This document shows positions 1 through 30,221 of a DNA stretch of 32,885 nucleotides, in pieces. The DNA is taken from positions 1-32,885 of the forward strand of contig JAZNKU010000244.1 in NCBI GenBank assembly GCA_045578685.1. The letters are read 5' to 3'. The translations under genes were made by a program, and so were the position numbers. Numbering within the stretch: the first letter of the stretch is position 1; each line of letters begins with the position of its first letter. Source of the DNA: Eubacteriales bacterium (GTDB lineage: Bacteria; Bacillota; Clostridia; Oscillospirales; CAG-272). The notes below the pieces were generated by a model, which worked only from the letters and a program-made list of their open reading frames with translations, was not told the DNA's origin and did no database searches.

Positions 1-1
1 A

Positions 2-271
2 TATATTTCCGAGCATCTGGACAGAAGTGCAAATATGATAGCGTTTATTTCAAAAGCATACGTAAAATCCCAGAATTGCCGCGACGAGCTGGCTCTTGCC
101 CGTACCAAGGGGAAGCCGATGAATGTTATTTATATAGACGACGTGTTGCTGTCCCCGGGCCTAAAAATGCGCTACGGAAGGATTCAGGCACTGTTTATGC
201 AGCAAATGTCCGAATCCGAGCTTTTTGAAAGATTGTATCTCGTTGAAGCTATGACGGCTTCCAAGGAGTAG
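2..271 (+). CDS. TIR-domain protein, C-terminal fragment (5' end lies outside the window)
   Basis: The frame is open from nt 2 to the TAG at 269-271, so ATG 35 is probably internal. ..ISEHLDRSANMIAFISKAYVKSQNCRDELALA.. aligns position-for-position with ..IAEHIERCDLFIAFLSGSYLDFLDKVDELNYS.. of the TIR domain in the next gene. It carries a classic S-x-x-C-x-x-E-L TIR motif. Confidence 0.75.
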   Translation, partial: YISEHLDRSANMIAFISKAYVKSQNCRDELALARTKGKPMNVIYIDDVLLSPGLKMRYGRIQALFMQQMSESELFERLYLVEAMTASKE

Positions 272-279: not shown

Positions 280-3216
280 ATGGAAAATTCAGTTTACAAG
301 CCTGATATTTATGAAGGCGGCGATCCGTATATTTTTGTCAGCTTTCATCAGAATGACAGAGAAAGAATTTTAAATATTCTTGAAAAACTTGATATGAGAG
401 GATTCCGCTTCTGGATCGATGACGGAATTTCTCCCGGTATGGAGACCGACGAGATCATAGCCGAGCATATCGAGAGATGTGATTTATTTATTGCGTTTTT
501 GTCCGGAAGTTATCTCGACTTTTTGGATAAGGTCGACGAGCTGAACTATTCAAGGGACACCAACAGGGAATATCTGCTGATATATCTGGAGGACGTGGTT
601 CTGCCTGCAGGTCTTGATATGAGATTTATGCGTTCCCAAAGCATCAGGGCATTTTCAATGAGCGATGAGGACGTATATTCTCAGCTTCTCAATATTGACG
701 GTGCAAAAAGATTTTACGGAATTACGGACACGAGTCTGCGTTCATCTGCGGAAAAGATTTTTGATGATCTCGAAAAGCTCTATCCCGAGCATAAGGTCTT
801 TGCTTTGGATGCTGTTGCCAAGCAGGTATCAAAGGGAATTTCGGAGCTGTACGTGCGTGCAGGTTATCCCAGCGCCGACAGACTTATGCTGGACTATGGC
901 TTTGCGCATATAAGTACCGATGATGCACGGGCTCTTCGCAGCAGTGTTCTCTATCAGCCCGGATTTGAGCCCGATATCATCAAGCCGAGAATAGATTATA
1001 TTGTGAATACACTTGCCAAGGATTATCCGGATAAACATATATCCGATAATCTGGCAAAAAGCCACAAATCTATCTATAAGTCGGTTCTGGGTATCAGCGT
1101 ATGGCTGGGATATGATTCCGCGGAGGAAATGTTAAGAGCCTACGGATTTACAGGTATATCCTCGGATGCCGGCCGAAGAGAGACCGACTGTAAGGCGGTT
1201 ATAGAACAGTTGAAGCTTCGTTATGAGGGTAAAGCTAAGCCTGCTTCCATAACGGGTATTATTGCGGAAAATCCGGACATTAAGGGTAATCTGAAAACAG
1301 CAATCAACCGTTCTTCCGAAATATACGGCATGACCTTACATCGGTATCTGACAAGTATAGGTCTTATCGTACGCCCCGAAAAAGAAAAGTGCACAAAGCT
1401 GGCGCTTGACAGAGTGAAGATAATCGAAGATATAAAGGAGCTTTACAGAACTCCCGGTCTTGATTACGGAAGTTTTGAGGATGCTGAGGGAACTCTTGAT
1501 CAGATTATCGTCAAGAAAAACAGAAAGAATGAGATTACTGTTACCGGATGCAGCTTTTGTGATGAAACGATGCGTATTCCCTACGGTATAGACTATATAG
1601 GAAATGAGTCATTTTATGCACAGGGTGATCTTAAAACACTTATTATTCCTCCCTCGGTAAAGGAGATAAAAGAATCTGCTTTTTCCGATTGTGATGGGTT
1701 GGAAACGGTGATCTTCTCCGAAGGATTGGAGCGCATTGGCAATCTTGCTTTTTCAGGCTGTACATCCTTGAAGAAGCTGGTGCTTCCACATTCTCTCAGG
1801 GATATCGGTAACGAAGCTTTTGCCGGATGTGAAGAGCTTTCGGAGGTTGAATTCAAAAACTTCAGAGTCAATATTCAGGAGGATGCATTCAACGATTGCC
1901 TGTATGAGCTTGAATATCTACAGGACGAGGGTGCATCTCCTGCCGATTACTTTGAACTTAACGTGGATAAGAAAAACAATGCCAAGATCACTGCATATAC
2001 CGGCGACGAGGAGGTTGTGGTTATCCCTGCTATGATAGCGGGACACCCTGTTATCTCTTTGGAAAAGGGTTGCTTTAAGGGTAACGAATACGTCAGAGAG
2101 ATATATATAAGCGATTATATTTCTGCGGTAAACGGTGACGTGTTCAAGGATTGCAAAAATCTGGAAAAGGTTCATCTTTCCGAATCGGTTAAATCTCTTA
2201 CGGGAACAGCCTTTGCGGGATGTACCAATCTTACTGAGATAAACATACCCGACAGCATGGAGGAGGTTCAGCGCGGTCTGTTCAAGGATTCGCCGCTGAC
2301 TACCTTATATGTTGGAAAGGGAACCAAAAAAATAAGTTCCGATGCCTTCTACAAGGGGGAGGCGGATTTTGCAACCGGAATGTATTTCAAAAAGAAATCT
2401 ATCGAAAATATTATAATCGATTCCTCCAACCCTTACCTCACCGTTAACGGTACGGCACTTCTTTCCGCTGACCAAAAAACTCTTATTGCCGAGCTTGGCG
2501 ATCCTGTTAAAGCGGTAATACCCGAGGGAGTAGAGGAAATATCGCCTCAGGCATACGACAGACTGGGATCTCTGTGTGAAATAGAATTCCCTTCAACTCT
2601 CAAGAAGATCGGAGAAAAGGCCTTTGCAGGTACCAATCTTAAAAGTGTTGAGCTGCCGCGCTCTCTTGAGGTTATAGAAGCACAGGCGTTCAGCTTCTGC
2701 CGGGTGCTATCCAATCTTGATGTAAATGAAGGACTCAGGATCATCGGTGCTCAAGCCTTTGCAGGATGTCCCATCGAGGACGTATATATTCCGGCATCGG
2801 TTGAGAGCATAGGTAACGACAGCTTCCTCGCTGTCTCTACCTATCAGGGCCAAATCAGTCAAAAATTCAGAGTGGATACGGCAAACCTTTATATTATAGC
2901 CGACGGAGTTGCGCTTTATGAAAGATCCGGAGACACGCTCAAGCTGATCAAGGCTTATCATCCCGATCTCAGATTTATGCCCAACACCCAAGCCCCCGAG
3001 CCTATAGAGTACAGCATAATTGAAGGTACTACCGAGATTTCGGCACAGGCATTCTCACGTTGCAACAACCTCAGCGGTTTGGTTATCCCGGAAAGCGTTC
3101 GTATTATAGGTGATATGGCATTCTGGGATTGCAGCAAATTATCGGAAATACATATTCCCGAGGGTTGTGTGGTCTCCGCCAAGGCCTTCTTCGGGATTTC
3201 ACCCCAAATGATATAA
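280..3216 (+). CDS. TIR domain - helical repeat linker - BspA-type leucine-rich repeat protein (978 aa), predicted cytoplasmic
   Basis: N-terminal TIR motifs: GDPYIFVSF, RGFRFWIDDGISPG, CDLFIAFLS, VDEL. Residues ~150-440 hold three ~60-80-aa repeats ending in GY.s...mL..YGF..IS. Residues ~440-978 are reiterated BspA/LRR_5-like units (IP.sV..IG..AF.gC..L..v). I saw no signal peptide, TM helix or P-loop. GGAGA lies upstream of ATG 280, and the gap to the upstream stop is 8 nt. Confidence 0.85.
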   Translation: MENSVYKPDIYEGGDPYIFVSFHQNDRERILNILEKLDMRGFRFWIDDGISPGMETDEIIAEHIERCDLFIAFLSGSYLDFLDKVDELNYSRDTNREYLLIYLEDVVLPAGLDMRFMRSQSIRAFSMSDEDVYSQLLNIDGAKRFYGITDTSLRSSAEKIFDDLEKLYPEHKVFALDAVAKQVSKGISELYVRAGYPSADRLMLDYGFAHISTDDARALRSSVLYQPGFEPDIIKPRIDYIVNTLAKDYPDKHISDNLAKSHKSIYKSVLGISVWLGYDSAEEMLRAYGFTGISSDAGRRETDCKAVIEQLKLRYEGKAKPASITGIIAENPDIKGNLKTAINRSSEIYGMTLHRYLTSIGLIVRPEKEKCTKLALDRVKIIEDIKELYRTPGLDYGSFEDAEGTLDQIIVKKNRKNEITVTGCSFCDETMRIPYGIDYIGNESFYAQGDLKTLIIPPSVKEIKESAFSDCDGLETVIFSEGLERIGNLAFSGCTSLKKLVLPHSLRDIGNEAFAGCEELSEVEFKNFRVNIQEDAFNDCLYELEYLQDEGASPADYFELNVDKKNNAKITAYTGDEEVVVIPAMIAGHPVISLEKGCFKGNEYVREIYISDYISAVNGDVFKDCKNLEKVHLSESVKSLTGTAFAGCTNLTEINIPDSMEEVQRGLFKDSPLTTLYVGKGTKKISSDAFYKGEADFATGMYFKKKSIENIIIDSSNPYLTVNGTALLSADQKTLIAELGDPVKAVIPEGVEEISPQAYDRLGSLCEIEFPSTLKKIGEKAFAGTNLKSVELPRSLEVIEAQAFSFCRVLSNLDVNEGLRIIGAQAFAGCPIEDVYIPASVESIGNDSFLAVSTYQGQISQKFRVDTANLYIIADGVALYERSGDTLKLIKAYHPDLRFMPNTQAPEPIEYSIIEGTTEISAQAFSRCNNLSGLVIPESVRIIGDMAFWDCSKLSEIHIPEGCVVSAKAFFGISPQMI

Positions 3217-3229
3217 AAGGAGAAATAAA

Positions 3230-3448
3230 ATGGAAAGACAACCTATCAGTTCATCAAATATTGTAAGTGCCGGTTATGACCCTGCTACACAGACCCTGGA
3301 GGTCGAGTTCAAGGGCGGTGTGGTGTGGCAGTATATGAATTTCCCTGAGTATATGTGGTTTGAATTTTTAGGCGCGCCCTCACAGGGAAAGTATTTTCAT
3401 GAGAACATCCGCAACAGATTTGGAGATTTAGGCTTCAGGGTACAGTAA
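3230..3448 (+). CDS. KTSC-domain small protein (72 aa)
   Basis: SSNIVSAGYDPATQTLEVEFKGGVVWQYMNFPEYMWFEFLGAPSQGKYFHENIRNRF matches the KTSC (PF13619-type) pattern. AAAGGAGA RBS lies 6 nt upstream. The gene starts 13 nt after the previous stop. Confidence 0.8.
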   Translation: MERQPISSSNIVSAGYDPATQTLEVEFKGGVVWQYMNFPEYMWFEFLGAPSQGKYFHENIRNRFGDLGFRVQ

Positions 3449-3449
3449 G

Positions 3450-5240
3450 ATGATCTGGAATATTTGCTTTATAATTTCCCCGTTAATCATTCTCGTTTCG
3501 GTCTTATATGCTTTGGCTGTGGCAAGAAATTATAAAAGCGACCGTGTTCTTACGCCCTTTTATATAATTTTTGCAGGAGTTTTTCTGTCGGTGTTTATAG
3601 GGTTGATACCGATGTTTTCCTCTATGCTTGCCGAAGAATCGGGATTTATACTTAAGCTTTGTGTTTTTGACATATTGCAGACGATACAGGTTTTTACCGT
3701 CAACGTGGGTGCGGATCTGATACTTGATAATATCAGCAATGCTTCGTCCTCTCTGAGCGGTGCATATTCGATGTATATGTCGGCACTGTTCTTTGTTGCA
3801 CCGGTTCTTACCTTTGGATTTTTGGTATCACTGTTCAAAAATCTTATCGAGGATCTGAATTACAGATTTCATTATTTCGGAGATGTATACGTATTTTCCG
3901 AGATGAACGAAAAGTCCTTGCTTCTTGCCGAAAGCATCAGAACAAAACATAAAAAAGCTCTGTTGGTCTTTACTGATGTGGACCGGGAGAACGGCGATGT
4001 ATTAAGTGAGCATGTTGAAACTGCTATGAGCTTGAAGGCGGTTATTCTGAAAAAGAATATTGTTGCGGCGGATCTTATAAGACATAGCAAAAAAGCGCAG
4101 ATGTTCCTTTTTGCGATCGGAGAAAAAGAAGACCGTAACCTGATAGATTCACTCAAGCTTCTGGAAAAGTACTCGCACAGAAAGAACACAAGCCTTTATA
4201 CGTTTTCCTCCGGCACGGAGGGCGAGCTTTTGCTGGCAAATGCCGAGAGAGGTGAGATAAAGCTCAGACGTGTAAATGAGGTGCGTTTCCTTATATACCG
4301 ATTTCTTTATGATGAGGGCGAACGTATTTTTTCCTCCGCTGTATCAACGGAATCCGATAAAAAGAAGATACATATCGTAATCGCGGGATTGGGAAAATAC
4401 GGCACGGAAATTCTTAAAGCCGTCACCTGGTTTTCGCAGATGGACGGTTATTGCGTGACCGTTGATGCTTTTGACAGCGATGAGCTTGCCGAAGAAAAGT
4501 TTTCAGCCCTTTGCTCCGAGCTTATGGATAATAGATATAACGGAGTTTTTATTCCCGGAGAAAGCGAGTATACGGTAAATATTCATTCCGGTGTGGATGT
4601 CAGAACAAAAAAATTTGCCGATACTCTGACAAGCTTTACCGAGGTAAGCTTTGTGTTTGTGTGTCTGGGAGATGATGAAAATAATATAAACCAGGCTGCC
4701 AATATCAGAATGCTCTGTGAACGCGCGGGACACAAGCCGATTATAAAAGCGGTAGTGTACAATACCGAGGAAAAGGAAGCATTGATCGGTATTACCAACT
4801 ATCGAGGTCAGCCATACGGGATTGAGCCTATGGGAGAGCTGTCCTATTCGTATTCCGAAGAAATACTTATGGGAAGCGAGCTTGAGAAGCTTGCACTTGA
4901 GCGTCATCTGAAATGGGGCAAGGAGGAGGAATTCTGGCAGTATGAGTATAATTACCGTTCCTCTATGGCTTCAGCCGTTCATATGAAAGCAAAGATAAAT
5001 TGTTGTATTCCGGGATCGGATAAAAGAGGAGAGGATCTTACCGTTGAGGAAAGAGACATTCTTGAAAATCTGGAGCACCGAAGATGGAATGCATATATGC
5101 GCTCGGAAGGTTATGTATACAGCGGATCTCCGGATAAATCCAGCAGAAACGATCTTGCCAAAATGCATCATGATCTTGTGGATTTTGAATCCTTGACAGA
5201 AGAGGAAAAAAGAAAGGACAGCAACGTTGCTTCCTTGTGA
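3450..5240 (+). CDS. Multi-pass membrane protein with cytoplasmic Rossmann-like (TrkA-N/RCK-type GxGxxG) module and C-terminal RyR-like domain (596 aa)
   Basis: About 4 hydrophobic helices lie in residues 1-135. IHIVIAGLGKYGTEILKAV...VTVDAFD is a beta1-GxGxxG-alpha-beta2-acidic Rossmann signature. The C-terminal LEHRRWNAYMRSEGYVYSGSPDKSSRNDLAKMHHDLVDFESLTEEEKRKD fits the bacterial RyR-domain pattern (E..H..W....GW.YG....K.H..LvpyeeL.eeeK..D). The ATG lies 1 nt after the KTSC stop, suggesting translational coupling. No K+ selectivity filter motif was seen. Confidence 0.7.
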   Translation: MIWNICFIISPLIILVSVLYALAVARNYKSDRVLTPFYIIFAGVFLSVFIGLIPMFSSMLAEESGFILKLCVFDILQTIQVFTVNVGADLILDNISNASSSLSGAYSMYMSALFFVAPVLTFGFLVSLFKNLIEDLNYRFHYFGDVYVFSEMNEKSLLLAESIRTKHKKALLVFTDVDRENGDVLSEHVETAMSLKAVILKKNIVAADLIRHSKKAQMFLFAIGEKEDRNLIDSLKLLEKYSHRKNTSLYTFSSGTEGELLLANAERGEIKLRRVNEVRFLIYRFLYDEGERIFSSAVSTESDKKKIHIVIAGLGKYGTEILKAVTWFSQMDGYCVTVDAFDSDELAEEKFSALCSELMDNRYNGVFIPGESEYTVNIHSGVDVRTKKFADTLTSFTEVSFVFVCLGDDENNINQAANIRMLCERAGHKPIIKAVVYNTEEKEALIGITNYRGQPYGIEPMGELSYSYSEEILMGSELEKLALERHLKWGKEEEFWQYEYNYRSSMASAVHMKAKINCCIPGSDKRGEDLTVEERDILENLEHRRWNAYMRSEGYVYSGSPDKSSRNDLAKMHHDLVDFESLTEEEKRKDSNVASL

Positions 5241-5257
5241 TTTGATATTGATAAAGA

Positions 5258-5302
5258 AAGCGGAGTGATTTTCACTCCGCTTTGTGATTTTCACTCCGCT
5301 TT
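5258..5302. terminator. Bidirectional intrinsic terminator between convergent genes, with a 19-bp tandem duplication of its 3' arm
   Basis: Stem AAGCGGAGTGA (5258-5268) pairs with TCACTCCGCTT (5272-5282), followed by TTT. GTGATTTTCACTCCGCTTT occurs at 5265-5283 and again perfectly at 5284-5302. Confidence 0.75.
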
Positions 5303-6646
5303 GACGTTTTTAAGCCATTTTCCGTAGTTGACCTTCCAGAAGGCTATGAAGCATTTTAATATCTGATCTCCCTTGAGGCAGATGAAGGTGACCACCAGGG
5401 GCCACTTGAATACATACGCCGAAAGGAAGGACATGGGGAGCACCAGACACCACATGAATATGGTATCCACCTTGAAAACAAAGGCGGTGTCGCCGCCGGA
5501 GCGAACTATGCCCGTATGTACTGCGTTCTGGTATGCGGTACCGATCACCGTTATCGACAGTACCAGCATAAACTGGTTGGATAGCTCGGTTGCGGCAGCC
5601 GATACGTTGTACATCGCATTTATGGGACCGCGGAGAAGGAAGATAAGTGCGCCTGTCACTAAACCGATACCGAGGAAAAGAATCTGAAAGGTTTTTGAAT
5701 AGAGAGGTATACGGGAAAGCTTACGCTCACCTATGGTCTTACCTATCATAACCGCTGTTGCTGTAGCCGAGGCGTAGGTCACAACGGTTATGACCGAGAA
5801 TACCGTGGAGGCTATTGAGTTTGCGGCGATGGCTTCCTTTGTGGTATGACCGAGAATTGCGGTCTGGAGCATCTGGGCAAAGCCCCACAGTACACCCGAG
5901 AAAAATACGGGAGCACCGGTCTTGAAATAGGTTTTAAACAGAGCCTTGTCAAAGGGGATAAGCTCCTTTGCCTTGAGCTTGATCTTTTTATCAATGCCGA
6001 ATACATATACACATACCACGGTAAACTCAAGGGCTCTTGCAATAAGCGTTGCATACGCCGCACCCTTGACACCCATAGCGGGACAGCCTAATTTACCGTA
6101 GATCATTATATAGTTCAGTCCGAGGTTAGTAAGCAACGCAAAGGTTGAGCTTGCAAAGCCGATAAGTACGGTTTCAACACTGCGGAGCATTGAGAGCATT
6201 GCCTGTGTGAAGGCGAATATAGGGTAGGTGAATACCATTATCTTAAGGTATAGCATACCCTGTCCTATAACATCTGCATCGTTTGAGAGCAGGGACAGAA
6301 CTCCGCGGGGCATGGCAAAGCATATGGCAAAGAGTACCATTGATACACCGACCGCCACCTTTGAGGATATAGCTGCCATATTCTTGACACCGTCTATACG
6401 GCCTTCTCCCCAGGCTCTGGCGCTGAATATCAGCGAGCCCTCTACGATGCCGGTTACCGACATCTGGAGAAGATACTGTATCTGGTTGACCAGTGCAACA
6501 CCCGACAGGGCATCCTCGCTGTACCGTCCCACCATAACGCTGTCTGTTATGTTTACCAGATAAACTATAACATTCTGCAAGGCTATGGCAAGGGTCAGAG
6601 AGATAAAAGTTATATAGAATTTCTTCTGTTTAACCAATAGTGACAT
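5291..6646 (-). CDS. MATE family efflux transporter
   Basis: About 450 aa with 12 TM-like segments and typical MATE motifs (VGRYSEDALSGVALVNQI, GAAYATLIAR). I prefer ATG at 6646 over the TTG at 6658 given in the ORF track. Confidence 0.85.
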   Translation of the reverse strand: MSLLVKQKKFYITFISLTLAIALQNVIVYLVNITDSVMVGRYSEDALSGVALVNQIQYLLQMSVTGIVEGSLIFSARAWGEGRIDGVKNMAAISSKVAVGVSMVLFAICFAMPRGVLSLLSNDADVIGQGMLYLKIMVFTYPIFAFTQAMLSMLRSVETVLIGFASSTFALLTNLGLNYIMIYGKLGCPAMGVKGAAYATLIARALEFTVVCVYVFGIDKKIKLKAKELIPFDKALFKTYFKTGAPVFFSGVLWGFAQMLQTAILGHTTKEAIAANSIASTVFSVITVVTYASATATAVMIGKTIGERKLSRIPLYSKTFQILFLGIGLVTGALIFLLRGPINAMYNVSAAATELSNQFMLVLSITVIGTAYQNAVHTGIVRSGGDTAFVFKVDTIFMWCLVLPMSFLSAYVFKWPLVVTFICLKGDQILKCFIAFWKVNYGKWLKNVKAE

Positions 6647-6660
6647 AATAAACCCCAAAT

Positions 6661-6686
6661 AAACTCCGCCACTGTGGGCGGAGTTT
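6661..6686 (-). terminator. Intrinsic terminator after the hydratase gene
   Basis: AAACTCCGCC (6661-6670) pairs with GGCGGAGTTT (6677-6686). On the minus strand the stem is followed by TTTATTT. Confidence 0.65.
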
Positions 6687-6693
6687 TGTCAGA

Positions 6694-8874
6694 TTATAAA
6701 TTAGCCTTATAGTAGTTGATGAGACAACCCTTTGCGATGATATCCTTTTCATCGTCGGTCAAGGGAGCCATCTTAAGCTCGAACTCGGTTGCAGTACCGT
6801 TTTCGGTGATAGCCCATGCTTCAAAGGACAGCTTGCCTTCGGTAACACCGGACTTAACGCCCTTAACGAGGATGTAGTCGCCTACCTTGAAGGGAAGCTC
6901 CTCGCTCTCAAAGAGGAAGGGAAGCATACCCCAGTTGATGAGGTTGGAGCGGTAACGCTTGGTAGCGTACTCAATAGCTATATTTGCAAGACCGCCGAGA
7001 ACTCTCTGGCAGGATGCAGCCTGTTCTCTTGCTGAGCCGTCACCGGGCTTACGTGCGTAAACAACGGAAGCGATCTCAAGTTCTGCAGGATCAACGCCGC
7101 AACGCTTTACAGCGTTTGCAACAGTCTCTGTGATCTCGCCCTTCTTAAATTCCTTTGCTCTGCCAACATACTCGGGATCCTTACGGGAGAGAGCAAAGGT
7201 AGAGAGCTTTTCGGGGTTAGAACGGTAAGAGGAGGTCTCGCCCGAGGGGATAAGCTCGTCGGTTGTGGTTACGTCATCTGTAATAAGAGAAGCAACACCG
7301 AGGAGGATGTTTTCACTAAGCTCGGGCTGTGCGGGCCAGTCGGTGATGTTGGGACCGAATTTAAGCTCAGCGGAAGCGTCTGCCTTGCCGTAGCCGAAGT
7401 AGCAACGGTTGCGGTATACGGTATCGTCAAAATGATACTCGGGAGTTGTATAGTCGATATCAAGCTCGGTTGCCGCAGTTACCTTACCGCCGTTAACAGC
7501 GGAAGCTGCGATAGAACGTGCGTCCATAAGAGCAACGAATGCGCTCTGACCGTCACCGGGCTTGGAGCCTTCACGGTTGGGGAAGTTACGGGTGGTGTGG
7601 CGGAGGGACAGTCCCTTGTTGGGCGGAACGTCGCCTGCACCGAAGCAAGGACCGCAGAATGCGGAGCGAACTGTTACACCTCTCTCAAGAAGTGTGGAAA
7701 CAACGCCGTTTTTGGTAAGCTCAAGGAACACGGGCTGGCTTGCGGGATATGCGGAGAGTGCGAACTCGTCTGCACCTACCCAGCCTGTCTTAAGAATATC
7801 GCTTGCAGCGCACATGTTGTCAAAGGTACCGCCGGCACAGCCTGCGATAACACCCTGTACAGCCTGAACTCTGCCGTCAGCGGTAATGTTTGCAATAAGG
7901 TCGTCAAGACCGTTTTCGTGAAGGATGTCCTTTGCATTAGCATTGAACTCCTTGATGGTATATGCATTGGAGGGATGGAAGGGAAGTGCGATCATACACT
8001 CAACGGAAGAAAGGTCTACCTCTACCATACCGTCGTATGCCGCAACCTCACCGGGAGCGAGCTTCTTAAATGCCTCGGGACGGTTGTGGAGCTTAAAGTA
8101 GTTTTCGGTCTTGTCGTCTGTCATCCAGATGGAGGAAAGACAGGTTGTCTCTGTGGTCATAACGTCGATACCGTTACGGTATTCCATAGGAAGATTTGCT
8201 ATACCGTCGCCGACGAACTCCATAACCTTGTTCTTGACAAAACCGTTCTTAAATACCGCACCGATTATAGCGATAGCAACGTCCTGAGGACCTACACCGG
8301 GCTTGGGGGCACCGGTAAGCTTGATTGCAACTACCTCGGGACAGTTGATGTCGTAGGTTCTCTTGAGATGCTGCTTAACCAGTTCGGGACCGCCCTCACC
8401 GATAGCCATAGTGCCAAGAGCACCGTATCTGGTATGGCTGTCAGAGCCAAGGAGCATTCTGCCGCAGCCGCTCATCATCTCACGCATATAGCTGTGGATA
8501 ACCGCCTGATGTGCGGGAACGTAGATACCGCCGTACTTCTTTGCGGCGGAGAGACCGAACATATGGTCATCCTCGTTGATGGTACCGCCAACAGCACAAA
8601 GACTGTTGTGACAGTTGGTCAGAACGTAGGGCAGAGGGAACTCGGTGAGTCCGCTTGCTCTTGCTGTCTGGATGATACCAACGTATGTAATATCGTGGGA
8701 TGCCATAGCATCAAATTTGATCTTTAACTTATCGGCATCTCCTGAGGTGTTGTGAGCCTGCAGGATAGAGTATGCCATAGTGTTCTTTCTGGCTTCCTCG
8801 TAAGAAACGGCAGGAGCGTCGATCACTTCGACACCGTTACGCAGGAAGACCTTTTCGCTTGTCAACTTTACCAT
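6694..8874 (-). CDS. Aconitase-family hydratase (aconitate hydratase-like, with C-terminal swivel domain)
   Basis: Aconitase Fe-S ligand motifs GSDSHT and [10 protein letters not shown] are present, with overall ~725-aa aconitase-like organisation. GGAGG lies 5 nt upstream of ATG at 8874. The TTG at 8886 in the ORF track sits inside that RBS. Confidence 0.8.
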
Positions 8875-9016
8875 TTTAACCTCCAAAGGGCTTTATATTA
8901 TAATAATGTATTATATCACTCAAAAATCGACCTGTCAACTTGTACAAAATCTTTTTACATTTTACTTGCAATATAAAGGCATTCGTGGTAAAATTATCAT
9001 ATCAAACTGGAGAAGT

Positions 9017-10615
9017 ATGCTTATGAAAAGATTTTTAGCATTTTTAATGACACTTACACTTGTGATTTCCGCTCTTTGTATCCCTGCGGTGGCAAAGGAG
9101 TTTTCTGACGTTTCGGCTGAAGACTGGTTTTACCCTTGCGTTAACGCCTGCCTTGAAAAGGGATATATGGTGGGTATCTCTGAGGATAAGTTTTCACCCT
9201 ATGAGCCTATAACCAGAGCTCAGCTCTGTCAGGTGCTTTATAACATAACCGAGGGTGAGGCAGAGTTTTCGCCATACTTTTCTGATGTTAAGGAGAGCGC
9301 TTGGTATGCAAAGGCGGTCTGCTGGGCAAAGGATACAGGCGTAGCTTACGGCACCTCTGAGGACAAGTTCTCTCCCCACCTGACCCTGACCCGCGAGCAG
9401 CTTGCGGTGTTCTATGCAAGATATACCGAGATATTCGGCATTACCCTTGCCGAAAAAACTCCTACCGACTATATGGATGCAGAGGATATATCCGACTGGG
9501 CACTTGAGGGTGTTGAGATCGCCAACAAGGCAGCACTTATAACTCCCCGTATGGCAGATATATTTCTTCCCCGAGGCACCGTGGCAAGAGCCGAGCTTGC
9601 AGGCTCTCTGCTTCGTCTTATGGGCGACTACGAAAACGGTGTCTATGACAGCTCCCGACATGTTCAGCTTGTGTATAACGATGTATCAAGTGCAGTTCTC
9701 GAGGTAGGTGCTGAAATTTCGGTCAAGCCTACCGTGTGGCCTTATGATGCAGCGGATACAAGAGTAAGCTTCAGCTCATCCGATCCCGCCGTGGCAGCGG
9801 TAGATGCATCCGGTAAGGTGACGGCAGTATCCAAGGGTAAGGCTTATATCACGGCTCGTAGCCTTGATGACGGACACAAGGCGGTGACTGTAATTACCGT
9901 AAATCCCAAGCCTGTCGGTAATATACTCCCAAAGGCGGCGGTACAGACACTTACAAGCAGCTATAATATAGAGATCAAGCCTATCGGCAGATATATAGAC
10001 CCCAACAAGCCTATGGTGGCTATCACCTATGACGACGGTCCCAGACCCAAGTCCACTAACCGTATTCTCGACTGTCTCGAAAAGTACGGTGCGGCAGCTA
10101 CCTTCTTTGAGCTCGGTTATCTTGCAAAGGCATATCCCGACTGCATCCGCCGTGAGGTCAAGATTGGATGCGAGGTAGCAAACCACTCCTGGGATCATCC
10201 CAATCTTGCTACCCTTTCGGGCAGCGGTGTTGCGAACCAGATAAACTCCACAAGCAACACCATATTCAACATCTGCGGAGTCAAGCCCAAGCTGCTTCGT
10301 CCCCCCTACGGCTCATACAATCAGACCGTCCGTAACAATGCGGGCATGCCCCTTATTATCTGGTCTATAGATACCCTTGACTGGAAGTACCGTGACGCAT
10401 CTTATGTTACCTCGGTTATCAAGAACCAGGTTACCGACGGCTCGGTTATCCTTATGCACTCTATCTACGATTCTACAGCTGCGGCAACAGAGGCGATAGT
10501 TCCTTGGCTTATTTCAAGAGGTTATCAGCTTGTAACAGTTTCCGAACTTGCAGAAGCAAGAGGTATAAAGCTGCAGAACGGAGCAAGCTATCATTCATTC
10601 TACAAAAAGAAGTAA
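9017..10615 (+). CDS. Secreted SLH-domain / Big_2-like / NodB polysaccharide deacetylase
   Basis: Signal peptide MLMKRFLAFLMTLTLVISALCIPAVA. Three SLH repeats (FSDV..WY...V.W....G...G.s..kFsP...lTR.Q). An Ig-like segment (VSFSSSDPAVAAVDASGKVTAVSKGKAYITA). NodB motifs (ITYDDGP, HSWDHPNL, LRPPYG). GGAGAAG RBS at 9009-9015. The start is ATG 9017 or 9023, not 8906. Confidence 0.85.
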   Translation: MLMKRFLAFLMTLTLVISALCIPAVAKEFSDVSAEDWFYPCVNACLEKGYMVGISEDKFSPYEPITRAQLCQVLYNITEGEAEFSPYFSDVKESAWYAKAVCWAKDTGVAYGTSEDKFSPHLTLTREQLAVFYARYTEIFGITLAEKTPTDYMDAEDISDWALEGVEIANKAALITPRMADIFLPRGTVARAELAGSLLRLMGDYENGVYDSSRHVQLVYNDVSSAVLEVGAEISVKPTVWPYDAADTRVSFSSSDPAVAAVDASGKVTAVSKGKAYITARSLDDGHKAVTVITVNPKPVGNILPKAAVQTLTSSYNIEIKPIGRYIDPNKPMVAITYDDGPRPKSTNRILDCLEKYGAAATFFELGYLAKAYPDCIRREVKIGCEVANHSWDHPNLATLSGSGVANQINSTSNTIFNICGVKPKLLRPPYGSYNQTVRNNAGMPLIIWSIDTLDWKYRDASYVTSVIKNQVTDGSVILMHSIYDSTAAATEAIVPWLISRGYQLVTVSELAEARGIKLQNGASYHSFYKKK

Positions 10616-10618
10616 TCT

Positions 10619-11917
10619 ATGTTGAAGAAAAATTCATTACACACGGTTACGATAACCGATATAAACAATCTCGGATACGGTATATGCCGTATCGAGGGTA
10701 TAGTCACCTTTGTTCAAGGTGGTGTTACGGGAGACGAGCTTGAGATAAAGATAATCAAGGCGGCAAAGGACTATCTTGTTGCCCGTATCGAGAAAGTAAT
10801 CAACCCCTCTCCTTACCGTACCGAGTCGGCTTGCCCTGTTTCAAAAACTTGCGGCGGCTGTGTATACCGTCATATCACCTACGAACACGAAAAACAGCTT
10901 AAGCGCAGCTACGTGGAAAACGCCTTCCGTAAGGCGGGTGTTACCGTAGATGTTGCAGAGGTCACATCTAACAACAAGACCGAGGGCTACCGTAACAAGG
11001 TGCAGTATCCCGTAGGTACAGACGGAAAGATAGGTTACTATAAGCCCAAGACCCACGATATAATCGAGTGTGATAACTGTATCCTTGAAGAGCCCATGCT
11101 CTATGAGATAAAGAAGCATATCGCCGATTTCATAAAAGATAAAAGGATAGATTGTTTAAGACATATATATCTCCGCTTGGGTAAAGCAACAGGTGAGGTC
11201 ATGGTCTGTCTTGTATCTGCTAAAAAAAAGTTTGCTTATTTAGACGAGCTTTGCAATACTGTTTGTGAGAAGTTTCCTCAAGTTAAGTGCTTTGCACTTA
11301 ACTTAAATGATAAGGATACCAACGTTATTTTAGGTAAGGATACCTTTATACTTAAGGGTAATCCCTATATCGAGGACGAGCTTTTAGGTTGCCGTTTCCG
11401 TATTTCTCCCCAGTCATTTTATCAGGTCAACCACGATATGACCGAGCTTTTGTACTCAAAGGTTATCGAGCTTTGTAACCTGAAAGAGGGTCAGAGTTTT
11501 ATAGACCTATACTGCGGCTGCGGTACTATAGGTCTGTGTGTAGCAAGTAAGGCAAAGACAGCAAATATGTTCGGAGTTGAGATAATCCCCCAGGCGGTGG
11601 AAAACGCCAAGGTCAACGCAGGCATCAACGGTATTGAAAACGCTGAATTTCTCTGCGGTGATGCGTCCGACGCTCCGCTTCACAAATGCGACTGCGTTAT
11701 AGTCGACCCGCCCAGAAAGGGTCTTACACCCAAGCTCATAGACGAGCTGGCTTCGGCAGACGTTGAGAAGATAGTATACGTTTCCTGCAATCCCGACACC
11801 CTTGCCCGTGACTGTGCTTTGTTTATCGAAAAGGGTTATAAATTATCTACCGTTTATCCCTATGATCTTTTTCCCAGAACAGGTCATGTGGAGAATATTG
11901 TTTGTCTTTGCAAGTGA
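10619..11917 (+). CDS. rlmD: 23S rRNA (uracil-5-)-methyltransferase, RumA/RlmD family (TRAM + Fe-S + SAM MTase)
   Basis: N-terminal TRAM-like region, Cys cluster CPVSKTCGGCVYRH, SAM-MTase motifs DLYCGCGTIG and DPPRKG, and catalytic VSCNP. Confidence 0.85.
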   Translation: MLKKNSLHTVTITDINNLGYGICRIEGIVTFVQGGVTGDELEIKIIKAAKDYLVARIEKVINPSPYRTESACPVSKTCGGCVYRHITYEHEKQLKRSYVENAFRKAGVTVDVAEVTSNNKTEGYRNKVQYPVGTDGKIGYYKPKTHDIIECDNCILEEPMLYEIKKHIADFIKDKRIDCLRHIYLRLGKATGEVMVCLVSAKKKFAYLDELCNTVCEKFPQVKCFALNLNDKDTNVILGKDTFILKGNPYIEDELLGCRFRISPQSFYQVNHDMTELLYSKVIELCNLKEGQSFIDLYCGCGTIGLCVASKAKTANMFGVEIIPQAVENAKVNAGINGIENAEFLCGDASDAPLHKCDCVIVDPPRKGLTPKLIDELASADVEKIVYVSCNPDTLARDCALFIEKGYKLSTVYPYDLFPRTGHVENIVCLCK

Positions 11918-14975: not shown

Positions 14976-15122
14976 GCAAAATCCCATATTTTACGAAAAA
15001 CATACTCATATCCCACCCTTTTTCATGTAAAGGGTGGGGACATTTCAGGGGAAATATGGTATAATCGGCACAAGAATAAAATATTGTTGTTTTCGGTAAC
15101 AATTTATAAAGGAGTGTATTCT

Positions 15123-17588
15123 ATGAAAAAACGTGTGTTTGCTTTTATCATGTGCGCTTTAATACTTGTCGGTATCCTGCCGGTCACATCATACGCTCTT
15201 GACTACGTGAAGATAGACGGGCTCAGTGCGCCCATGGAGGGGGATGCACCCGATTACACCGTAGCATATGACAACACAGTAACTCTAAGTGCGGGTAACA
15301 ACAATCCGTCGTATTACAAGAACGGCATATGCTGGTATGATATGACAACGGCATCCATTATAAGAACTACTGCAAAATTTGTTGCAGGCCATCAGTATAA
15401 GGCGATTTTGTATTTAGAGGCTATTAATAATTATGCCTTCACAACCGCCCCTACGGTTATGGTCGATGACAAGCTTGCAGTCGAAGTTGACCGTTTCGAC
15501 GATACAAGAATCGTAGTAGAGGTTGTGTTTGACCCGATACCTCAGTATACACCCATATACTCCATAGAATATTACACCGACCATCGCCTGACCGTAGGCG
15601 ACGAGCTTGAAACCGTAACTCTTGTCCGTATTAACGGAACAAATGATTTTGGTGCTATGCTCAAGGAGTGGGACGGTGCCTGGTATGTAAACGATACCAA
15701 GACCGATGATCCCGACGATTACGAAAAGTATAACGGGGACGTTTATATTCCCAACATAAGCTTTGCTTACCGTGCGGAGATAACACTTAAGGGAGAGTAT
15801 GTATTTACAGAGGGGTCAGATGTTTCTCTCAATTTTACAAACTACTCCGTCACCGGCTTAATGCAGAGCCTGTCCCCGGATTCAAAGACAGCAGTATTCT
15901 ATTTCTTTGCAGATCCCCTTACCGCACAGCCTATAAATTCGGTTGCATATACCCTTGAGGGCTATGAGTTCGGCTCACCTATAAACGGTATAACCGTTAA
16001 TTCAAGCGATGCAGTAAACACAAACGGTGCTTACGGAACCGATTACTTCATCACCATAGCAAACCGTATACCCATAATGACAGGTGACTTTGAGGCGGAC
16101 ACAACCTACACTCTTCGTATTGCAGTTACAAGCAACGTCTATGACGTAAGCTCGCTTACAAAGCAGGATATCACCCTCAACGGCAAAAGGGCAACAAATA
16201 TCGAAACGGTAAACGGCGTATTGTTCGCTATCTTTTATCTTCCCGAGCTTGAAGTACAGGACATTGAAATATACAGTATACTTCTGGCGGTGGATGTTGA
16301 AGGACCTAAGGCGGGTCAGAGCTTCTTCTATCCTACCGTTTATGCGGTGAACGGCGAAGAGAGCCTTGCCTCTGCAGTGACATTACCCGATATCGGAGAA
16401 GACTTCGGCTGGTATGTATCCGATTATTTTCTGCCCGATGCCTACTATGAGTACGTAACCGATACGGACAAATTTGAAGAGGGCAAGGCGTATCTTTTCT
16501 TTGCAACGATAGATGCTTTACCCGGATATACCGTCGCCCCCGGTTGCTACGTTACAATCAGCACCCCCAACGGACTTATGGAGGGTGTGCTCAGCAGTGT
16601 AGGTCCTACTTATGTCCAGTATGAGTTTGTTTGCAATCTCGGAGCGCCCGACACAGCTCCCAAGCTTGAAAGTGTCCGCGTTGAGCTTGGTGGCTACGGA
16701 GCAGGAAAGGCAATACAGGATATAGCCGTAATTCCCACGGTGAACGGTGCAGAATTACCTTATATTCCCGACGGTGAAAATCCTCTGTACGGAATGTTCT
16801 ACGGTGTGCTTAATGAAAACAAGGACTTTATACCCGAGGGTGTCTTTGAAAATAACGCCGATTATTACCTTTCCGTGCTTCTTTCTGCAGGCAGCTACGA
16901 TACAGGCTCCCTTGATAAATCAAAATTCACTCTTAACGGCAAGGCGGCAGATTCTGTTGAAGTCCGCTTCGGTATGATAGAGATCACCTTTAAGCTTTCC
17001 CGACTTACGTTAAATCCTTTTATCGACGTAAAGGAAAACCACTGGTTTGCGGCATCGGTTGCATACTGTGTAGAAAAGGGTTACGTTGCCGGAATGACCG
17101 AGACCACCTTTGTTCCTAACGGTAAGCTCACCCGTGCACAGTTTTTGACCATCCTTGCAAAGCTTGACGGTGTTGACCTTACCCAGTATGATACGGCAGA
17201 TGCAGGCTTTGCCGACGTTAAGACCGGCCATTGGTATAACGAGGTTGTATGCTGGGCGGTAGAAAAGGGATATACCAGCGGTCTTTCTACGGAAAAGTTC
17301 GGTCCCAACGTTGATATCACAAGAGCACAGCTTGCAAGATTCTTCTACGTTTATTCCGAAAAGAACGGAATAAATGTGGACGGCAGAGCAGATCTTTCCT
17401 CCTTCCCCGACGTTAAAAAGGTAGCGGATTGGGCAAGAACTCCGGTGGAGTGGGCAGTGAAAGCGGGACTGATCTCCGGTGTGGCAAAGGACGGCAAGAA
17501 TTATCTTGACCCCAACGGAACCGCAACCAGAGCACAGGCAACGGTGATGTTTAAGGCATACGACGATTTCAGAGGTGTAAATGGTTGA
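15123..17588 (+). CDS. Large secreted cell-surface protein with internal ~260-aa repeats and three C-terminal SLH domains
   Basis: Signal peptide MKKRVFAFIMCALILVGILPVTSYA after an AAAGGAG RBS. Repeated modules end in TLNGKRATNIETVNGVLFAIFYL and TLNGKAADSVEVRFGMIEITFKL. The C-terminal SLH triplet is FIDVKENHWFAASVAYCVEKGYVAG, FADVKTGHWYNEVVCWAVEKGYTSG and FPDVKKVADWARTPVEWAVKAGLISG. Confidence 0.85.
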   Translation: MKKRVFAFIMCALILVGILPVTSYALDYVKIDGLSAPMEGDAPDYTVAYDNTVTLSAGNNNPSYYKNGICWYDMTTASIIRTTAKFVAGHQYKAILYLEAINNYAFTTAPTVMVDDKLAVEVDRFDDTRIVVEVVFDPIPQYTPIYSIEYYTDHRLTVGDELETVTLVRINGTNDFGAMLKEWDGAWYVNDTKTDDPDDYEKYNGDVYIPNISFAYRAEITLKGEYVFTEGSDVSLNFTNYSVTGLMQSLSPDSKTAVFYFFADPLTAQPINSVAYTLEGYEFGSPINGITVNSSDAVNTNGAYGTDYFITIANRIPIMTGDFEADTTYTLRIAVTSNVYDVSSLTKQDITLNGKRATNIETVNGVLFAIFYLPELEVQDIEIYSILLAVDVEGPKAGQSFFYPTVYAVNGEESLASAVTLPDIGEDFGWYVSDYFLPDAYYEYVTDTDKFEEGKAYLFFATIDALPGYTVAPGCYVTISTPNGLMEGVLSSVGPTYVQYEFVCNLGAPDTAPKLESVRVELGGYGAGKAIQDIAVIPTVNGAELPYIPDGENPLYGMFYGVLNENKDFIPEGVFENNADYYLSVLLSAGSYDTGSLDKSKFTLNGKAADSVEVRFGMIEITFKLSRLTLNPFIDVKENHWFAASVAYCVEKGYVAGMTETTFVPNGKLTRAQFLTILAKLDGVDLTQYDTADAGFADVKTGHWYNEVVCWAVEKGYTSGLSTEKFGPNVDITRAQLARFFYVYSEKNGINVDGRADLSSFPDVKKVADWARTPVEWAVKAGLISGVAKDGKNYLDPNGTATRAQATVMFKAYDDFRGVNG

Positions 17589-18961: not shown

Positions 18962-19795
18962 CTAATATCTCATTTTCGCATAACCGCAGTGCTTGCATAG
19001 CTCTTCGGTTATTTTTCTTTTTTCAAAGGATTCCTTCAATGCCCTTGCACGGGGTGAATTTAATATTTCATCCAAAGGAGTATCGAAAATATTTCCTAAA
19101 TTTATCGCTCCTTCCGCATCAAGACAGCAGGGAACTACCGTGCCGTCTGACAGTACGCCTATCTGATCACGCAGACCGTAACAGGAGTGGGTGTCCCCTG
19201 CATATTCGGCATCCACGTCCGGCCAGTCGAATTTCTGTCCCCATTCGAGAAAAATCTTGTTCCGCAGTTTATATCCTGAGTAGATCTCTTTCCATTCACC
19301 TGTAAAATAAGAGTGCATATCTTCAAGTATCTTTTGATTAAGATTATTTTCTCCGCCCTCGTTCCACAGACGCATTACTGCGATTATACCATTATCCGCC
19401 GCCTCACGGCAGAACTCAAAGCAGCTTTTAAGATACTCGTCTGCAGATATTCCGATATCATTTGCCTCGTAGCTGTGCAGGGAAATGCTGACCTTGTGAA
19501 GTGCCTTTGCGGACAGAAGTATGTCCTTTTTCTTATCCAAGAGAGTTCCGTTTGTGGTAAGTATGACCTTAAAGCCAAGCTCTCCTGCTATATTTAAAAA
19601 TTTTTCCAAAGACGGATGCAGAAGCGGTTCGCCCATAAGATGAAAATACAGATAATCGGCAAAGGAGCGTAACTGCTTTGCTCCTGCCTCAAACTCGCTT
19701 GAAGACAGATGTTTGATTTCTCTTTTTGTCCCGTGGCAGAAGCTGCAACTCAGATTGCAGGCATTGGTTATTTCAAAAAAAGCTTTGTTAGGCAT
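18962..19795 (-). CDS. Radical SAM / SPASM-domain protein
   Basis: CNLSCSFC (CX3CX2C) at residues 13-20. C-terminal Cys-rich auxiliary-cluster region (SCYG...VVPCCLD...CKHCGY). Confidence 0.8.
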   Translation of the reverse strand: MPNKAFFEITNACNLSCSFCHGTKREIKHLSSSEFEAGAKQLRSFADYLYFHLMGEPLLHPSLEKFLNIAGELGFKVILTTNGTLLDKKKDILLSAKALHKVSISLHSYEANDIGISADEYLKSCFEFCREAADNGIIAVMRLWNEGGENNLNQKILEDMHSYFTGEWKEIYSGYKLRNKIFLEWGQKFDWPDVDAEYAGDTHSCYGLRDQIGVLSDGTVVPCCLDAEGAINLGNIFDTPLDEILNSPRARALKESFEKRKITEELCKHCGYAKMRY

Positions 19796-19909
19796 AATAA
19801 ACTCCGAGTATTTGATAATTAATTCTACACCTTTTCGGAGAGAATATCAAGTAGAGTTTATAATGAGTTGATGAATTTATAATAAAATAGAGCACAGGAG
19901 GTGCTGTAT

Positions 19910-20731
19910 ATGTGTACTGCAATTAAATACGATAATTATTTTGGACGGAATCTTGACCTGTGGTGTCACTACGATACCAAGGTAATAATAAGCCGTGACG
20001 GCAAATACCCCGTTATGGGTATGGGTATAGAGGCAAGGGGCTATCCTCTGTATTTTGATGCTATGAACGACAGAGGTCTTGCAATGGCGGGGCTCAATTT
20101 TCCGGGTAATGCTGTTTATTTTCTTCTTGATGAGAGCAGGATCAATCTCGCACCATACGAGCTTATCCCTTATATTTTAGGCAATTTTTCCACGGTAGAC
20201 GAGGTTGCAAATGAACTTTGTAAGGTCAATATCCTCGACCGCCCTTTTTCCGAAGATGTCCCTTTATCCCCACTTCATTGGATGATTTCGGACAAAAATG
20301 CTTCAATTGTCCTCGAAAGCACCGAAAAAGGGGTGAAAATATACCAAAATCCCCACCATGTGCTTACAAACAACCCGCCATTTGATATACAGAGCTTCAA
20401 TCTTAACAACTATAAACGGCTCTCGCCCCACTCATGTGAGGATGATTACAGCCTCGGCATGGGAGGACTTGGGTTGCCCGGAGATCTTTCGTCCATGTCG
20501 AGATTTGTACGTGCTGACTTTTATTTAAAAAATTCTCCCTCAGAACTTGGAGTAAACCAACTTTTTCATCTTCTTTATTCGGTGGCTATACCCAAAGGCT
20601 CTGTCATAACCCCCGAGGGAACCGAGGAATATACCCAATATACCTGTTGTTGTGATTTAGAAAACAATAAATATTATTATACCGAATATGATAATCTTAA
20701 TGTCAGATGCATAGGATTTAATGACCGATAA
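19910..20731 (+). CDS. Choloylglycine hydrolase / linear amide C-N hydrolase family (Ntn hydrolase, Cys2 nucleophile)
   Basis: CAGGAGG RBS, then ATG-TGT gives MCTAIKY.., the hallmark N-terminal Cys. NLDL, MNDRGLAMAGLNFPG and LTNNPPFD motifs are typical of BSH/PVA enzymes. Confidence 0.8.
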   Translation: MCTAIKYDNYFGRNLDLWCHYDTKVIISRDGKYPVMGMGIEARGYPLYFDAMNDRGLAMAGLNFPGNAVYFLLDESRINLAPYELIPYILGNFSTVDEVANELCKVNILDRPFSEDVPLSPLHWMISDKNASIVLESTEKGVKIYQNPHHVLTNNPPFDIQSFNLNNYKRLSPHSCEDDYSLGMGGLGLPGDLSSMSRFVRADFYLKNSPSELGVNQLFHLLYSVAIPKGSVITPEGTEEYTQYTCCCDLENNKYYYTEYDNLNVRCIGFNDR

Positions 20732-28459: not shown

Positions 28460-29404
28460 ATGTTAAAAGATATCTGTTCATTCATTGACTCTGATGATGT
28501 GCGTAACCATCTGGAAACTATAGGCTATGAGCCCACCCCCGCCGAAGCGGCAGGTATTATCTATTCCTCGGACTTACGCTGCCTTGCTGATAAGCAAGCG
28601 GCTATGAGAGAATTGCTTGAAAGTACAGAGGACACTCCTATAGAGGGATACATATACACGTTGCATCAGCTGATAGAGGATCAGCTATCGGCCGAGGATA
28701 TCTGTGCCGAGGAGTTTTTCCGCGACGATGATTCGGAGGATATACTGTATATGTGCAGAAAAGATAGTTGGGATTTCGCCCACGAAAAAACTTTAAAAGC
28801 TTGTTTTGATAAGATAAAACACTATCATATGTCCTCGGATATCTGTAAGATATTTAAGATAGATCTTAAGGATGCCAAGCACCATTATCCCTACGTAGAA
28901 GTAAAGAACGGAGAAATAATGAGTATCGAGGATAACAGAACGATAAAGTTCAGGGATATATTTAAATCCTTATATAAGGATCTGCCTCTTCCCTTTAAAT
29001 CGGGAGATATACTGTATTTCAAAAATCCGGCAGGACATCCCGATCCCTTCGTTTATATAGGCAAGAGGACCGAGCCCCCCACCGAGGACAACTGCTTTAT
29101 AGAAGGCAATATGGAGATATACGATATAGACACCGAAGGATCCGTATATAAGACCTATTGCGAAGATTTTATCAAGGCATGCAGGTATAAAGGTTCGCTT
29201 AATAACACCAAAGCTCTACTTCGTCCCCTGAGTGCATTTATAAATAATGAGATAGATATCATACTATACACCAACGCTTGCCATATCATTCTCGACCGTG
29301 CAAGAGCTAAACAAGCATCAAAAACGGTTAATTTATCGAAATATACAGACGAACAATTAGAAAGTGCCGGATTGAGCGATATGGTTTCGTTTTTTAATTG
29401 TTGA
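28460..29404 (+). CDS. Hypothetical protein (314 aa), no recognisable domain
   Basis: Long ORF with an AAAGGAAA RBS-like element upstream. Acidic and soluble-looking. AT-rich codon usage differs from the flanking core genes. Confidence 0.6.
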   Translation: MLKDICSFIDSDDVRNHLETIGYEPTPAEAAGIIYSSDLRCLADKQAAMRELLESTEDTPIEGYIYTLHQLIEDQLSAEDICAEEFFRDDDSEDILYMCRKDSWDFAHEKTLKACFDKIKHYHMSSDICKIFKIDLKDAKHHYPYVEVKNGEIMSIEDNRTIKFRDIFKSLYKDLPLPFKSGDILYFKNPAGHPDPFVYIGKRTEPPTEDNCFIEGNMEIYDIDTEGSVYKTYCEDFIKACRYKGSLNNTKALLRPLSAFINNEIDIILYTNACHIILDRARAKQASKTVNLSKYTDEQLESAGLSDMVSFFNC

Positions 29405-29430
29405 CAGATGGTTAACCAAAGTGGTACAAT
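29401..29430 (+). promoter_or_regulatory. Strong sigma-A promoter (extended -10) for the 29487 gene
   Basis: TTGACA (29401-29406), 18-nt spacer ending in TGG, TACAAT (29425-29430). Confidence 0.55.
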
Positions 29431-30179: not shown

Positions 30180-30221
30180 TAAAAACGAATAAATATATAA
30201 AACTCAAAAGGAGATGTTAAT

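Follow-up and report, generated by a model that had tools for sequence, protein, structure and literature searches.

To our knowledge, the TIR immune enzymes described from bacteria are either bare sensors of the ThsB type or heads with an effector function, mounted on STAND ATPases, Argonautes or CBASS sensors. The 32,885-nucleotide contig JAZNKU010000244.1 of a Eubacteriales bacterium (assembly GCA_045578685.1), called the window here, encodes a 978-residue protein in which an N-terminal TIR domain is joined through an all-helical module to an LRR_5-class solenoid of leucine-rich repeats (LRR) of the BspA type, with no NTPase in the same polypeptide. This TIR-LRR protein is the product of the second gene in a conserved operon, which also encodes a short TIR protein (sTIR), a KTSC-domain protein and, usually, a 596-residue membrane protein (TM596). 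We tentatively regard TIR-LRR as the LRR sensor arm of a Thoeris-like, multi-gene cytoplasmic TIR conflict module, most likely an anti-phage one, a proposal in which our confidence falls a little short of even.

As in Thoeris (types I-XI), TIR genes encoding a catalytic-type glutamate share an operon with a candidate effector that has transmembrane (TM) helices and a domain resembling a fold shown to bind isomers of cyclic ADP-ribose (cADPR); Thoeris loci can likewise contain more than one TIR gene, and the gene block is accessory here. What sets the operon apart from Thoeris is that its main TIR carries a 560-aa LRR_5 arm, attached via a novel helical module, and that the candidate effector is absent from about a third of the loci. 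PADLOC gave no system-level match for the operon. In 2025, TIR signalling systems were surveyed systematically and 29 types of effector were listed. Within the searched text and supplements of this Thoeris survey, its Figure 1 excluded, the terms LRR, RyR and KTSC do not occur, and neither an effector of the 4-TM, Rossmann and RyR/R12-like kind nor KTSC was found among those named; no prior description was found in the texts, figures aside, of the literature on bacterial TIR-LRR or TIR-BspA pairing. InterPro may, however, already contain the TIR+LRR_5 combination as such, with no comment attached.

The combination of an N-terminal TIR with a C-terminal LRR in a cytoplasmic protein is also that of the plant TIR-NLRs (TNLs; RPP1, ROQ1) and the TIR-STAND proteins (Avs, bNACHT), and the TIR-LRR model could be placed on RPP1. 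In contrast to these proteins, TIR-LRR has no NB-ARC or NACHT, and its 275-aa helical linker contains no P-loop and has no fold match in the PDB; because it lacks an NTPase, it falls outside the TIR-NLR and STAND classes. TIR-NACHT-LRR_5 proteins (P0082, P0115) are present in the same database as the orthologues. Toll and Toll-like receptors likewise combine LRR and TIR without an NTPase, and the TIR-only partner is formally like the TIR adaptor of such a receptor. In TIR-LRR, however, the LRR is of the BspA/LRR_5 class, the NADase-type glutamate is kept and both partners are cytoplasmic; it is not a Toll-like receptor, since it has no TM helix (nor a signal peptide) and its domain order is reversed, with the TIR at the N-terminus.

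The gene and its parts were delineated as follows (window coordinates).

280..3216, plus strand: TIR-helical-LRR_5 gene, an intact open reading frame (ORF) with an ATG start, 978 aa
280..699, plus strand: TIR domain, aa 1-140 (Pfam TIR_2)
538..540, plus strand: GAG codon of the catalytic-type Glu87, checked in the sequence
700..1524, plus strand: all-helical module, aa 141-415 (hhalign repeats; helices only in the AlphaFold2 model)
1525..3213, plus strand: BspA-type LRR_5 solenoid, aa 416-978 (four LRR_5 blocks, ~18-20 repeat units)

From the Pfam profiles, it is clear that the protein starts with a TIR domain: TIR_2 matched aa 18-136 over model positions 1-121/122 with an E value of 2.4e-12, profile significance having been set beforehand as the test of this domain, and a second TIR-family model (TIR) matched with E 6.6e-5. 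LRR_5 was found in four stretches (E 1.6e-86). The AlphaFold2 (AF2) model, computed from an alignment of 46 orthologues with a mean pLDDT of 86, shows a flavodoxin-like N-terminal domain, a helix-only segment at aa ~141-410 and a long beta-solenoid with a regular strand spacing of ~23 residues. When this model was compared with the PDB using Foldseek, the top matches were BspA-type LRR structures (4fs7, 4gt6, 4h09, PcpA 4cp6 and TpLRR 6mlx), and the TIR part was placed on plant RPP1 and on SPARTA TIR-APAZ. The fusion of an N-terminal TIR with a BspA-type LRR without an NTPase in cis, as proposed in the initial annotation of this DNA, was borne out by Pfam, AF2, Foldseek and a Walker A regular-expression search alike.

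The full-length orthologues of TIR-LRR (n=46) are 38-73% identical in sequence; since so many exist, the ORF at 280..3216 is not a chance one. Glu87, which lies in a 'VDEL' motif, is invariant (46/46 TIR-LRR sequences) and aligns with the glutamate of two other motifs, 'VREL' of the RPS4 TIR and 'WDEL' of Cat1, a position that we take to be the NADase glutamate of plant and bacterial TIRs. Judged by its sequence, the TIR of the 978-aa protein looks catalytically competent.

TIR-LRR shares its LRR class and solenoid fold with BspA-type surface proteins (Tannerella BspA, PcpA, TpLRR and the LRR_5 proteins of gut bacteria). In contrast to them, it has neither leader nor anchor, is fused to an intracellular signalling enzyme, and belongs to a large set of leaderless proteins that combine the helical module with LRR_5. 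Its N-terminus is acidic (MENSVYKPDIYEGGDPY); hydropathy, pattern searches and Pfam revealed no signal-like N-terminus, LPXTG motif or SLH domain in the 978-aa protein, and the best 19-residue Kyte-Doolittle mean of 1.27 is below the level of a TM helix. The absence of a signal peptide, TM helix, sortase or SLH anchor and Walker A motif, as first annotated, is thus upheld. An 834-aa cell-wall-anchored protein with three SLH domains is encoded at 15084..17588 of the same contig, so that the bacterium anchors surface proteins in a way that TIR-LRR lacks. BRCT is an intracellular domain, and its occurrence in related helical-LRR_5 proteins is consistent with cytoplasmic BspA-type LRRs; the earlier proposal of an intracellular, leaderless BspA-type LRR agrees with these data.

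BspA-type LRRs and bacterial Tcp TIR proteins are both known from host interaction, and the habitat is the animal gut, as would suit a host-directed factor, that is, a non-classically exported, Tcp-like mimic of Toll-like receptors with BspA-type LRRs for adhesion to animal cells. We consider this very improbable, in view of the lack of any signal peptide, TM helix, SLH or sortase motif, the TIR at the very start of all 46 orthologues, the tight operon with partners of cytoplasmic type, the BRCT-fused paralogues and the retained catalytic-type glutamate.

The genomic context was read from orthologue-carrying contigs and 19 metagenome loci (L-numbers denote the loci of relatives). The initial annotation had pictured a self-contained sensor-effector, a picture that is not supported, since TIR-LRR occupies the second place in an operon whose make-up is strictly conserved, with sTIR, KTSC and usually TM596. 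The order sTIR, TIR-LRR, KTSC was seen in every locus with the relevant flank (~20 loci), including that of the orthologue with 38% identity. The remaining features of the operon in the window are given below.

1..271, plus strand: 3' part of the sTIR gene (last 89 codons and stop), cut by the contig end; TIR_2 E 2.8e-7
3230..3448, plus strand: KTSC-domain gene, 72 aa; Pfam KTSC (PF13619) E 6.9e-23
3450..5240, plus strand: membrane protein gene (TM596), 596 aa, by hydropathy; start codon 1 nt after the KTSC stop
Within aa 1-133 of TM596, plus strand: four TM helices, by hydropathy
4386..4403, plus strand: GxGxxG Rossmann motif of TM596, aa 313-318; G313/G315/G318 invariant in homologues
5076..5228, plus strand: RyR/R12-like domain of TM596, aa ~543-593; H543, W546, H573, D590
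5257..5283, plus strand: intrinsic-terminator-like hairpin (12-bp stem, 6 GC pairs, T-rich tail) between convergent genes

The four genes are separated by gaps of only 8, 13 and 1 nt, Shine-Dalgarno sequences precede the second and third, and the sole strong terminator hairpin of the operon follows the fourth. The 3' arm of this terminator, TGATTTTCACTCCGCTTTG, is tandemly duplicated (5257..5304).

In relatives, sTIR has a length of 145 aa. The fragment in the window shows 68.5% identity with the L001 protein over residues 57-145 of the latter, which at full length matches TIR_2 with E 9.7e-23 (Pfam). The fragment keeps the glutamate motif as 'NCRDEL', with 'RDEL' present in all sTIRs compared (n=14). 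When sTIR was compared with the TIR of TIR-LRR, the two were found to be colinear paralogues of 30-33% identity that both keep the glutamate, in a (C/V)xDEL motif common to them.

The KTSC gene lies 3' of TIR-LRR in every locus with a 3' flank. Its product in the window scores 80.6 bits against a gathering threshold (GA) of 25, matches PDB 7x8c (E 2.5e-13), and also matches the C-terminus of HerA in SIR2-HerA (8wiv_A residues 628-691, E 6.6e-13). SIR2-HerA (Nezha) is a validated NADase defence system (PMC11472057), and the KTSC domain has been called DNA-binding by Aravind and colleagues (PMC9503650). The two systems are alike in having a KTSC domain together with an NAD+-cleaving enzyme as the core activity, which for TIR-LRR is a putative one. 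They differ in that KTSC is here a free 72-aa protein instead of the C-terminal domain of HerA, with no HerA or SIR2 in the operon.

The fourth gene product, TM596, belongs to a family with more than 360 database matches and no Pfam annotation. Besides the TM helices and the GxGxxG motif, an alignment of homologues revealed near-invariant D342 and D344 after this motif, a signature of dinucleotide-binding Rossmann domains. Its C-terminal ~50 aa align with the R12 fold. A TM596 profile matched an RyR chimera in the PDB (E 3.8e-4) and, weakly, 3nrt, 4n05 and 6uag, three structures from bacteria labelled 'putative ryanodine receptor', and the tail matched the RyR-like domain of B. thetaiotaomicron with an hhalign probability of 88.6% (E 2.7e-6). 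In the latter alignment, H543, W546, H573 and D590 of TM596 fall on the H/W/H/D of the B. thetaiotaomicron domain, with spacings of +3, +25 and +42 after subtraction of a 5-residue insert. The first three residues are invariant and D590 is near-invariant among 25 homologues, and all are also kept in variants that lie beside other TIR genes. In the phage protein RyDEP, H75, W78, H100 and D117 bind and cleave 2'cADPR and 3'cADPR, and these ligand residues are stated to be conserved across PF02026 (PMC13232231). The correspondence between TM596 and RyDEP, with H/W/H/D at the same spacing, was drawn from the spacing and from that conservation statement and is not a direct alignment, and only one R12 half-repeat is detectable by sequence in TM596. 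Unlike RyDEP, which is a soluble phage counter-defence enzyme or sponge, TM596 is host-encoded, is fused to four TM helices and a Rossmann domain, and is located in a TIR operon.

A gene of this family follows KTSC in the window and in L001-4, L008, L009, L019 and L111 (about two thirds of the loci), and in L015 its place is taken by a 476-aa variant with TM and RyR parts that scores 26.5 bits with Pfam RyR (E 7.9e-6; gathering score 27.4). The downstream genes differ in every locus with the fourth gene, which therefore travels with the operon. That TM596 is a fixed chromosomal neighbour was rejected, both for this reason and because a related metagenome-assembled genome (MAG) lacks the whole block. 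Relatives of TM596 were also found beside a 786-aa TIR-Sel1 protein (L024 1900..4257) and beside a split pair of a 345-aa TIR protein and a 1522-aa LRR_5 protein (L112 171..5858), and two paralogues precede a 553-aa TIR-LRR_4 protein (L113 10204..11865); all three are TIR-repeat layouts without an NTPase. We regard it as plausible, though short of established, that the fourth gene is part of the TIR operon system. Directly upstream of the TM596 paralogues and TIR-LRR_4 in L113, genes for an FtsK/DUF87 ATPase and LHH, SUKH_5 and TNT toxin-immunity proteins were seen (798..5666).

Taking these data together, we propose a model whose functional steps, from trigger and NADase activity through signal and effector role to defence itself, we infer as follows. 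The LRR_5 solenoid, joined to the TIR by the helical module, would bind an invader protein or a guarded partner from the host or the operon; that the ligand is a phage protein, as first suggested, might hold as a matter of pure inference. Ligand binding would release or cluster the TIR, probably together with the 145-aa sTIR, so that composite TIR active sites could form and NAD+ would be cleaved. In loci with the fourth gene, TM596 may use its RyR/R12-like and Rossmann domains to sense the ADP-ribose-derived product or to turn it over, and would then act on the membrane, and in loci without it the loss of NAD+ may itself be the output. KTSC, for which nucleic-acid binding has been predicted, would serve as a small accessory subunit. 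A bolder form of this proposal is an axis from a bacterial TIR through a cADPR-type signal to an RyR/R12 domain, in which an NTPase-less LRR-TIR receptor and its TIR-only partner would gate a host membrane protein, and RyDEP of phages would be a captured host receptor domain; we hold this form to be doubtful.

Several observations weigh against the proposed Thoeris-like conflict module. Matches to the PADLOC model of ThsB are weak for both TIR proteins (TIR-LRR E 0.008, sTIR 4e-6), and the best PADLOC match of sTIR (5e-9) is to TIR-containing models other than ThsB. The match of TM596 to Pfam RyR (PF02026; E 0.011, 16.4 bits) is below the gathering score of 27.4, the fourth gene is absent after KTSC in L010, L011, L012, L014, L020 and L108, and the surroundings are free of TIR genes in 4/7 loci reached via TM596 homologues (L005, L006, L007, L114). 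In other bacterial systems, TIRs fused directly to sensor domains are usually NAD+-depleting effectors and not signal makers, which is how they are treated in 10.64898/2025.12.03.692087. The LRR is not fast-evolving as in immune receptors (per-domain identity 0.56-0.72, compared with 0.68 for the TIR), the locus was detected only in DNA metagenome runs at a low share and in no RNA run, and an NTPase could act in trans, because MoxR and vWA genes are frequent neighbours.

Part of this evidence would suit a self-contained abortive-infection NADase, in which an LRR ligand causes TIR oligomerization and NAD+ is drained with no second messenger, TM596 and KTSC being bystanders or regulators. About one third of the loci do without the fourth gene, the TM596 family often occurs alone, and the sensor-fused TIRs of Avs, SPARTA and CBASS deplete NAD+. 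This explanation, however, leaves aside the linkage of TM596 to four different TIR-repeat layouts, its translational coupling to KTSC and its conserved cADPR-binding residues of the R12 fold, and we judge it unlikely, if deserving of some weight.

An excess of variation in the LRR was specifically looked for at per-domain resolution and was not seen, and a hypervariable LRR was rejected. An LRR no less conserved than the TIR argues for a ligand that is itself conserved or is endogenous (guarded), and not for a rapidly escaping phage protein. A conserved, non-diversifying LRR would also be expected if the TIR pair served non-immune NAD/ADPR signalling, making or removing an ADPR-type metabolite in response to an endogenous ligand, with TM596 adjusting transport or the state of the membrane; the wide occurrence of the TM596 family in housekeeping contexts and the housekeeping genes that make up the right flank of the window fit this as well. 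The presence or absence of the block between related genomes, the patchy, metagenome-only distribution and the defence-like neighbours nevertheless speak against such a role, which we regard as quite improbable.

The accessory nature of the block is clear from a goat-caecum MAG related to the bacterium studied here (hydratase 97% identical, 84-88% nucleotide identity). It is syntenic with the window over 11868..5307, up to the MATE gene, and then carries ABC-transporter genes in place of the block; the block, including the fourth gene, is therefore accessory. The TIR-LRR family was found only in metagenome contigs from animal guts and bioreactors, and a scan of the GTDB species representatives with two TIR-LRR peptide patterns returned no relative. 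None was found in the IMG/VR viral contigs either, so that there is no sign of a phage-borne gene. Other neighbours of the operon in relatives include LmuB-like, GajB-like UvrD, Cas4-like, DEDDh and WYL genes, of which the UvrD matches are generic.

The NTPase question extends beyond the protein itself. Neither a Walker A regular expression nor Pfam nor the secondary structure that AF2 gave the linker revealed a hidden NTPase in the 978-aa protein, so the earlier statement that the fusion lacks an NTPase stands for the polypeptide; it does not carry over to the surroundings, since in L004, L108 and L111 the TIR operon has MoxR-type AAA+ and/or DUF2201 (vWA) genes at its flanks. An NTPase may thus act in trans. 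MoxR-type AAA genes alone also flank the split TIR/LRR_5 locus L112, and a helical-LRR_5 body without a TIR lies directly upstream of DUF2201 (vWA-like) and AAA_5/MoxR-type genes (P0048, L107). Systems of vWA and MoxR proteins with TIR effectors have been described (PMC7159879). TIR-LRR might accordingly be the swappable head of a larger LRR_5/vWA (DUF2201)/MoxR-AAA+ system, with the MoxR switch supplied in trans and an NLR-like logic split over several genes. We find this improbable, since the distance and order of the MoxR/vWA genes vary among loci and the genes are not adjacent in L008-L015 where the flanks are visible; the contig of the window breaks off inside the sTIR gene, and the upstream side is missing. 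A trio of a large leaderless LRR_5 protein, DUF2201 and a MoxR-type AAA+ protein was observed at L107 4572..11104, L108 13240..20075 and L004 1..9537, and looks like an uncharacterized multi-gene system of gut Clostridia; L108 also encodes an LRR_5+DUF4132 protein.

The helical module that joins the TIR to the LRR represents an undescribed domain of wide occurrence. When searched for exhaustively with a profile, it was found in 627 protein clusters at E <= 1e-3 and in 288 at E <= 1e-30, in proteins of 140-2400 aa that commonly contain multiple copies, with LRR_5, BRCT, DUF6273 or coiled coil as partners; a word-indexed search with the same profile had given only 8 proteins, mostly fragments. 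Within TIR-LRR, repeats R1 (aa 148-225) and R2 (aa 226-296) are homologous with an hhalign probability of 96.6% (E 6e-10), while a third copy (~297-372) and a partial fourth (~373-390) have only the first-helix motif in common with them (E 0.003-0.03). Of the three helical repeats initially annotated, the quoted peptide cores are all present and two are solid repeats of ~75 aa; given the weak matches of the later copies, the third has to be called degenerate. AF2 predicted helices without strands for the linker (pLDDT 81.6), and Foldseek found no fold match in the PDB or BFVD (best E 3.3 and 2.3). A helix-hairpin-helix DNA-binding guess for the 'GY.S...L..YGF' motif was dropped, since Foldseek returned nothing below E 2.

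Elsewhere in the window, the region 28460..32861 has a low GC content (0.37-0.39, compared with ~0.45 elsewhere) and contains six ORFs without a Pfam or NCBIfam match, and may have been acquired as a further island. The minus strand at 18962..19795 encodes a 277-aa radical SAM/SPASM protein whose match to prokaryotic viperin stays below the threshold (E 5.8e-13; 48.7 bits, cut-off 180), and a choloylglycine (bile salt) hydrolase-like gene at 19901..20731 (E 7e-95, just under the equivalog cut-off) is consistent with an animal-gut host.

If the proposed conflict module is correct, the pairing of LRR and TIR known from animal Toll-like receptors would also exist as a soluble bacterial device, and would offer a simple system in which a TIR is switched by a ligand without nucleotide exchange. 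TM596 would then be the first host-encoded candidate receptor with an RyR/R12 domain for TIR-made signals, soon after binding of 2'/3'cADPR by this fold was demonstrated in counter-defence proteins of phages. Should the bolder axis from TIR through cADPR to RyR also hold, it would be a prokaryotic counterpart both of the LRR-TIR Toll-like receptors and of the link between cADPR and the ryanodine receptor in animals. The analysis has in addition exposed a large uncharacterized family of gut Clostridia proteins that have BspA-type LRRs but no leader, together with a new helical domain.

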